16,681 nt of DNA from a virus. Lineage: Duplodnaviria; Heunggongvirae; Uroviricota; Caudoviricetes. The translations under genes were made by a program, and so were the position numbers. A model generated the notes under the pieces. That model made no database searches, was not told the DNA's origin, and was given only the letters and a program-made list of their open reading frames with translations. The stretch lies in IMG/VR virus record IMGVR_UViG_2541047909_000002; one strand, given 5' to 3'. Below, piece after piece: positions 11,361 to 12,240 of the stretch (positions are counted from its first letter, which is position 1; the number at the start of each line of letters is the position of its first letter).

Positions 11361-11694
11361 GTTAAGTTGATGCAGATCAATTAATACGATACCTGCGTCA
11401 TAATTGATTATTTGACGTGGTTTGATGGCCTCCACGCACGTTGTGATATGTAGATGATAATCATTATCACTTTACGGGTCCTTTCCGGTGATCCGACAGG
11501 TTACGGGGCGGCGACCTCGCGGGTTTTCGCTATTTATGAAAATTTTCCGGTTTAAGGTGTTTCCGTTCTTCTTCGTCGTAACTTAATGTTTTTATTTAAA
11601 ATACCCCCTGAAAAGAAAGGAAACGACAGGTGCTGAAAGCGGGCTTTTTGGCCTTTGTCGTTTCCTTTCTCTGTTTTTGTCCGTGGAATGAACA
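11361..11694 (+). other. Lambda-type cos site: cosQ region, cosN (GGGCGGCGACCT at 11505-11516), cosB
   Basis: Near-identical to the recalled lambda genome ends: right-end sequence ...GATCCGACAGGTTACG immediately followed by the 12-nt cohesive-end sequence and the left-end cosB region leading into the Nu1 start. Confidence 0.85.
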
Positions 11695-12240
11695 ATGGAA
11701 GTCAACAAAAAGCAGCTGGCTGACATTTTCGGTGCGAGTATCCGTACCATTCAGAACTGGCAGGAACAGGGAATGCCCGTTCTGCGAGGCGGTGGCAAGG
11801 GTAATGAGGTGCTTTATGATTCTGCCGCCGTCATAAAATGGTATGCCGAAAGGGATGCTGAAATTGAGAACGAAAAGCTGCGCCGGGAAGTTGAAGAACT
11901 GCGGCAGGCCAGCGAGACAGATCTCCAGCCAGGGACTATTGAGTACGAACGCCATCGACTTACGCGTGCGCAGGCCGACGCACAGGAGCTGAAAAATGCC
12001 AGAGACTCCGCTGAAGTGGTGGAAACCGCATTCTGTACTTTCGTGCTGTCGCGGATCGCAGGTGAAATTGCCAGTATTCTCGACGGGATCCCCCTGTCGG
12101 TGCAGCGGCGTTTTCCGGAACTGGAAAACCGACATGTTGATTTCCTGAAACGGGATATCATCAAAGCCATGAACAAAGCAGCCGCGCTGGATGAACTGAT
12201 AACGGGGCGCACTTTGACGGTGACCAGAGCGGCACGGTGA
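11695..12240 (+). CDS. nohA: Terminase small subunit Nu1 homolog (181 aa), C-terminal ~12 residues replaced by a deletion junction
   Basis: Matches recalled lambda Nu1 residue for residue through ...KAMNKAAALDELI, then diverges (TGRTLTVTRAAR) where lambda continues PGLLSEYIEQSG. Confidence 0.9.
   Translation: MEVNKKQLADIFGASIRTIQNWQEQGMPVLRGGGKGNEVLYDSAAVIKWYAERDAEIENEKLRREVEELRQASETDLQPGTIEYERHRLTRAQADAQELKNARDSAEVVETAFCTFVLSRIAGEIASILDGIPLSVQRRFPELENRHVDFLKRDIIKAMNKAAALDELITGRTLTVTRAAR

Follow-up and report, generated by a model that had tools for sequence, protein, structure and literature searches.

What can a packaging site still do in a chromosome that no longer encodes the enzyme that cuts it? 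The window analysed here, a stretch of 16,681 bases, contains a lambda-type cos site followed by a nearly full-length homologue of Nu1, the small terminase subunit (TerS), and lacks a gene for the large subunit (TerL). The locus is the cos–nohA segment of the cryptic lambdoid prophage Qin. We consider it highly probable that this segment is the Qin packaging origin together with nohA, left behind by a deletion from gene A to gene J, and that a helper phage could cut it, efficient transduction not being expected. The identification of cos–nohA adds nothing new in itself; Qin cos–nohA is already known, having been annotated since the K-12 genome and in hundreds of genomes. The recurrence of deletions that end at the 3′ end of nu1 is the one item that may deserve separate follow-up.

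The full window is 100% identical to Escherichia coli HSP425, and at least 80% of it is present in 594 genomes. Its gene order is that of Qin at the ydfJ locus: relBE, hokD, ydfU, ydfT, cspB/F/I, rrrQ, rzpQ and gnsB, followed by ydfO, ynfO, nohA, a J-related pseudogene, tfaQ, pinQ, ydfK and a truncated ydfJ. Window 9001–12207 shares 99.6% identity with Qin of K-12, and in K-12 MG1655 the segment cos–nohA (b1548) lies in the same prophage at the same site beside ydfJ, cos and nohA codons 1–169 falling within the stretch of 99.6% identity. The two differ in what follows: in K-12, nu1 extends to lambda position 719, where it meets stf, and NohA has 189 amino acids, whereas in the window nu1 stops at position 697, is joined to J at position 17306 and yields a NohA of 181. 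At window 2132–3340, Qin carries an inserted IS1414 (IS256-like) transposase gene, and rem (1836–2060) is truncated by the insertion; a second IS1414 transposase gene copy lies just upstream of the window. This insertion sets the strain apart, most Qin carriers matching only 92% of the window.

Window 11144–12201 is colinear with the joined ends of lambda (48141–48502, then 1–697) at about 98% identity. By blastn against lambda NC_001416, window 11144–11505 corresponds to lambda 48141–48502 (98.3%) and window 11506–12207 to lambda 1–703 (98.2%, with a single gap); an identity of about 98% over 1,064 bases rejects a chance resemblance. The gap reflects one extra G at position 138 of NC_001416 relative to the DE3 prophage, Qin and the other aligned phage records, so that positions beyond cosB, on its right, differ by one from record to record. 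Base-by-base scoring was done against the lambda DE3 prophage, which carries an uncut cos junction.

All the cos sub-sites are present in the order, orientation and spacing of lambda (Table 1). The cohesive end is flanked by its nick sites and occurs once in the window, where 0.04 matches are expected by chance; cosQ lies at the lambda spacing, and the R-like sites are in the canonical R3/R2/R1 arrangement with no indel between cosN and R3. There are no mismatches to DE3 across window 11361–11554, from the cosQ side through the cohesive end to I2. This span includes GGGTCCT, the cosQ heptamer, which is reportedly needed for packaging termination (Wieczorek & Feiss 2001). The segment used for cosQ in the Feiss minimal cos insert, lambda 48446–48502 (PMC4856287), is 100% identical in the window, and I2, also unchanged, is an essential bent segment that sets the spacing between cosN and cosB (PMC4856287). 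The alignments to lambda and DE3 thus bear out the original prediction of a lambda-type cosQ, cosN and cosB. Its further statement, that these are preserved almost exactly as in lambda, holds for the cosQ side, cosN and I2, which are identical, and is too strong for cosB, which has five substitutions, one of them inside R3. A sequence overlapping cosQ, at 11477–11492 (GGTCCTTTCCGGTGAT), agrees with the R-site core CGTTTCC at six of seven positions and is oriented like R3 and R1.

Table 1 Features of the cos–nohA segment in the window.
Feature	Window coordinates	Strand	Lambda coordinates	Remarks
cosQ heptamer GGGTCCT	11476–11482	+	48473–48479	
cosN cohesive end GGGCGGCGACCT	11506–11517	+		0 mismatches to lambda, flanks identical
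cosN nick, top strand	11505/11506			
cosN nick, bottom strand	11517/11518			
I2 spacer	11518–11554	+	13–49	0 mismatches, no indel
R3, critical TerS binding site	11555–11570	+	50–65	C53T at window 11558
I1 region, IHF site between R3 and R2	11571–11612	+		Substitutions at 11578 and 11607
R2, inverted	11613–11628	-	108–123	Identical to lambda; 16/16 of R consensus
R1	11656–11671	+	152–167	Identical to lambda
nohA (annotated nohA, WP_000453589.1)	11695–12240	+		Nu1 residues 1–169 plus 12-residue out-of-frame J-derived tail
Deletion junction	12198–12207	+	697 and 17306	Last nu1 base 12201 (lambda 697), first J base 12202 (lambda 17306)
Tail-tip gene J remnant	12202–12504	+	17306–17608	91.9% identity, out of frame

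Whether this cos could still be recognized depends on the five cosB mismatches to DE3: 11558 C>T, 11578 A>G, 11607 T>C, 11642 A>G and 11655 C>T. The first, at lambda position 53, changes the fourth base pair of R3 and the first base of the CGTTTCC core common to all three R sites, and falls outside the TerS contacts; R3 spans bp 50–65, of which bp 55–63 contact TerS (PMC9026076), and mutations at bp 56, 58 and 59 affect packaging (PMC9026076, PMC4669245). The last lies one base pair outside R1, a site described as accessory (PMC4669245). When nine phage records were aligned, the Qin base was found in sequenced lambdoid phage isolates at four of the five positions: both I1 bases (11578 and 11607) are the commoner state among the nine, and the T allele of C53T also occurs in Lambda_4B5, PhiR29_1 and Stx1_112808, which suggests that this change is tolerated. 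The T at 11655 was seen in none of the nine. The spacing between cosN and cosB is critical in work from the Feiss laboratory (PMC9026076, PMC4669245, PMC4856287), and the published functional constraints (cosN, the sequence and spacing of I2, R3 bp 55–63, and R2) are all unaffected in the window. Judged from its sequence, the Qin cos is probably a competent terminase substrate.

A dead relic, in which C53T and the other cosB changes block productive terminase binding, would be the opposite reading. It could point to a substitution inside the 16-bp R3, the most critical of the R sites, and to the absence of an identical cos from the phage records, the best of which reach 98.0–98.4%. Against it, C53T lies away from bp 56, 58 and 59 and outside the contact region, three phage records share the T, and cosN, I2, R2 and R1 are unchanged; we therefore regard a dead site as improbable. 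Substitutions in cosN or in the R sites had been named as findings that would count against the original prediction. There are none in cosN, and C53T, although it is strictly such a change, does not refute function, because three sequenced lambdoid phage records have the same base. Literature searches on cleavage of the Qin cos returned no experiment on this allele and only passing mentions of nohA.

The gene beside cos has kept most of Nu1. The 181-residue NohA matches the Pfam family Phage_Nu1 (PF07471) over profile positions 1–164 of 164 (E = 3.9e-101); its first 169 codons have seven mismatches to DE3, and residues 1–169 have just two changes from lambda Nu1, A75T and L132I, which NohD of the defective prophage DLP12 shares. 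Residues 1–74, with the N-terminal winged-helix DNA-binding domain, are identical to those of Nu1, and by sequence the DNA-binding and oligomerization regions are intact. Residues 170–181, however, read TGRTLTVTRAAR in place of PGLLSEYIEQSG in Nu1; the total of 181 amino acids, equal to the length of Nu1, is a coincidence. The TerS C terminus belongs to the TerL-binding domain (PMC9026076). With this tail exchanged and no gene A present, the locus cannot make a terminase, and with no large subunit encoded beside nohA the module is inert on its own. The profile match and the lambda alignment thus agree with what had been predicted for the gene, namely a nearly full-length Nu1 homologue with a replaced C terminus and no gene A.

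The replaced tail derives from a 16.6-kb deletion in which lambda 698–17305 was lost. The junction lies in an imperfect 10-bp microhomology, GATA[C/A]CGGGG, and translation meets a stop 12 codons into the out-of-frame J sequence; by blastn, window 12198–12504 corresponds to J 17302–17608 (91.9%), annotated as a ‘phage tail tip protein J-related’ pseudogene, and window 12650–13364 to stf/tfa (21824–22538). A microhomology-mediated deletion would have removed gene A through most of J and left cos and nohA in place. The window is a deletion derivative, since full-length Qin with A through J persists in other strains. In E. coli B379 (NZ_CP090456.1, 2383228–2427232), Qin has a full nohA followed by A, W, B and so on to J, lom and stf, and it also carries integrase and excisionase genes; as this prophage is largely intact, the ‘cryptic’ Qin of K-12 is a decayed form of it. 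An intact nu1–A junction in Qin context occurs in roughly 570 records, an estimate drawn from rows 1–7 of an even sample of 60. Among 5,426 complete genomes, 51 have the junction of the window and 367 that of K-12. In K-12 MG1655 (1635798–1635847), stfQ is annotated as starting at the GTG that begins the terminase gene A (lambda 711), and ‘StfQ’ is therefore three A codons fused to the C-terminal part of the side tail fibre.

What would happen if a phage of lambda specificity infected such a cell? Its terminase would be expected to bind the Qin cosB, nick cosN and then translocate in the packaging direction, from cosN towards nu1 and thus rightwards in the window, through tfaQ, pinQ and ydfJ and on into host genes including marRAB. 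The 50 kb downstream in the identical genome contain tfaQ, pinQ, ydfK and ydfJ, then marRAB (about 17 kb from cos), the lsr operon (about 29–37 kb) and hipBA (about 44–45 kb), and over this distance there is no other cosN, even when one mismatch is allowed. Termination of lambda packaging requires a second cosQ–cosN downstream (PMC4669245), so packaging from the Qin cos could not terminate properly. Since no second cosN lies within 50 kb, neither normal termination nor efficient transduction is expected. The original prediction that a helper phage could cut and package this region is thus plausible as to cutting and initiation, the key sub-sites being intact, and too strong as to packaging. 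The outcome may instead be a double-strand break in the chromosome, serving as a local hotspot of recombination with incoming phage DNA, together with rare defective particles with one cos, of the docL type. The practical relevance is modest: a cos of lambda specificity lies upstream of marRAB in the packaging direction, with lsr and hipBA within one headful, which makes it a possible phage-triggered break or recombination point beside clinically relevant genes.

Several known systems show parts of this picture. Packaging from the single cos of a lambda prophage into host DNA reportedly yields docL particles (Sternberg & Weisberg 1975; Sternberg 1986). Their initiation at a lone chromosomal cos is like the outcome predicted for Qin, with the difference that the induced lambda prophage supplies its own terminase, whereas the Qin cos would be used in trans. 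Lambda itself has the same sub-site order, orientation and spacing, with identical cosQ, cosN and I2 and two differences in Nu1 1–169; the window departs from it by the cosB substitutions, the missing TerL gene, the replaced 12 C-terminal residues of Nu1, and a cos that is fixed in the chromosome in single copy. A further parallel is cos–nohD of DLP12, which likewise combines a lambda-type cos with a Nu1 homologue in a defective prophage and is 97.4% identical to window 11144–12207. Unlike the window, DLP12 encodes a full-length NohD followed by a gene A fragment (aaaD), and its deletion starts near lambda 1018. Its cos and nu1 work in lambda recombinants, and half of the sequenced junctions from recombination between lambda and the prophage fall right at cos, which the authors attribute to cos cleavage (PMC3945230). 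These junctions support the view of a prophage cos as a break and recombination hotspot; it is for DLP12, and not for Qin, that evidence of cutting and recombination at a prophage cos has been published. Gram-negative phage-inducible chromosomal islands (PICIs; for example, EcCICFT073) also have a chromosomal lambda-like cosQ–cosN and depend on a helper terminase (PMC9026076). In contrast to the window, they lack lambda R sequences, carry beside cos the Rpp protein that retargets TerS, and excise and replicate. The window does not belong among them: its cosB is of the lambda type, with the lambda R sites present, the neighbour of cos is nohA, the Nu1 homologue itself, rather than rpp, no integrase or replication gene is annotated in the window, and there is no sign that this Qin copy could be mobilized.

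The left endpoint of the deletion is not peculiar to the window. Many independent E. coli prophage deletions, that of the window included, have left endpoints no more than about 8 bp apart, at lambda 694–701 (CTGATACCGGGG; window 12198–12207); at least 12 nu1-proximal junctions were read at the DNA level. As in the window, the last nu1 base is 697 in PSJ-23 (joined to gene I), in N73 and NIPH17_0036 (joined to a tail-fibre gene) and in metagenome contigs with W 2694, A 2179, E 6595, stf, another J site and three further partners; it is 699 in E. coli B (joined to J 16142) and 695 in the Qin prophage of 21EVA (joined to B 4241). A human gut metagenome contig has base 697 joined to the stf partner of K-12 (ACCGCGCTGACAG...), whereas K-12 itself joins at 719; this looks like a second deletion, of 22 bp, that again ended at the same nu1 position. 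Qin of NCTC9066 presents the reciprocal case, in which lambda 48313–697 is deleted and 698 onward is kept.

The clustering is also apparent in proteins. Distinct C-terminal tails diverge from Nu1 after residue 169 in about 23 cases, after residue 170 in four and after residue 168 in four, so that about 31 distinct fusion tails fall at residues 168–170, against none at 147–164; three more diverge at residue 165, five at 172–176 and seven at 139–146. Truncation endpoints within lambda 46–1100, taken from even-step samples that were not centred on the junction, were 697, 697–703, 699, 702, 719, 913, 956, 1018 and 1034. On the right, the partners are spread across B, C, E, FI, U, I, J, lom, stf, tfa and an integrase gene. 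To the left and to the right of the join, their sequences are often similar to that of the nu1 site (TA / NN GG), a pattern also seen in the left half-site of cosN, GTTACG^GGGC. It is possible, though we would put it well short of an even chance, that the 3′ end of nu1 is a recurrent deletion endpoint through site-specific breakage or recombination, or through selection that keeps cos–nohA while TerL is lost. A site-specific process could involve, for example, off-target cutting by a prophage terminase at a cosN-like half-site, or a recombinase. If so, an intact cos and Nu1 without gene A would be no accident but an outcome that prophage decay favours; were it confirmed, a cluster of dozens of endpoints within about 8 bp at the nu1/A boundary would point to a specific mechanism or selective pressure shaping the decay of lambdoid prophages.

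A number of candidate causes were examined and rejected. Lambda 660–760 contains no hairpin (z = 0.01) and no notable repeats, no R-like site for terminase binding lies about 47 bp from the endpoint, and no Chi site that might stop RecBCD occurs nearby within one mismatch. Downstream near-matches to the 10-mers of the hotspot are unexceptional in abundance (78th–91st percentile), so that an abundance of microhomology partners does not account for the cluster, and sites for the DNA invertase Pin, Xer-type recombinases and EcoKI or EcoBI are poor matches by eye.

The same endpoints bear on the idea that cos–nohA is kept for some benefit to the host or the prophage. In one form, NohA would be a candidate decoy small terminase that binds cosB or co-assembles with incoming Nu1, recruits TerL poorly and so hinders packaging of the lambda type. 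That many independent prophage deletions halt just short of destroying nu1 is compatible with retention, and the make-up of NohA, with DNA-binding and oligomerization parts intact and the extreme C terminus of the TerL-binding domain replaced, would suit a decoy; the TerS-binding Rpp of PICIs shows that lambda packaging can be redirected or blocked (PMC9026076). The truncation is not required for retention, however, because the estimated 570 or so Qin-bearing genomes keep full nu1 and A, and DLP12 keeps a full-length Nu1, and the endpoint cluster is sharper than selection on a protein domain would predict. A decoy is also hard to reconcile with the good growth of lambda on K-12, which carries both nohA and nohD. 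We thus hold a retained function to be very improbable, and prefer to read the segment as a remnant of the A–J deletion, with a cos that a helper could probably cut.

Exact matches to a 22-mer of nu1 among 185,579 species-representative genomes were mostly lambda DNA in unrelated organisms (Marinifilum, Shewanella, Pseudomonas, Kitasatospora and others), in some cases on contigs of about 48.4–48.5 kb; this is almost certainly laboratory lambda contamination.

Two regulatory sequences lie to the left of cos, and lambda carries both. Window 11362–11385 (TTAAGTTGATGCAGATCAATTAAT), some 120 bp to the left of cosN, has the exact sequence of an FNR site that lies upstream of nohA and nohB and is reported to be bound in vivo, by ChIP-chip and gel shift (PMC1802558). 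Between this site and cosQ, window 11450–11468 (GTAGATGATAATCATTATC) is a good predicted Fur box; a cluster of Fur sites at position -233 of nohA has been predicted and gel-shifted (PMC2189734).
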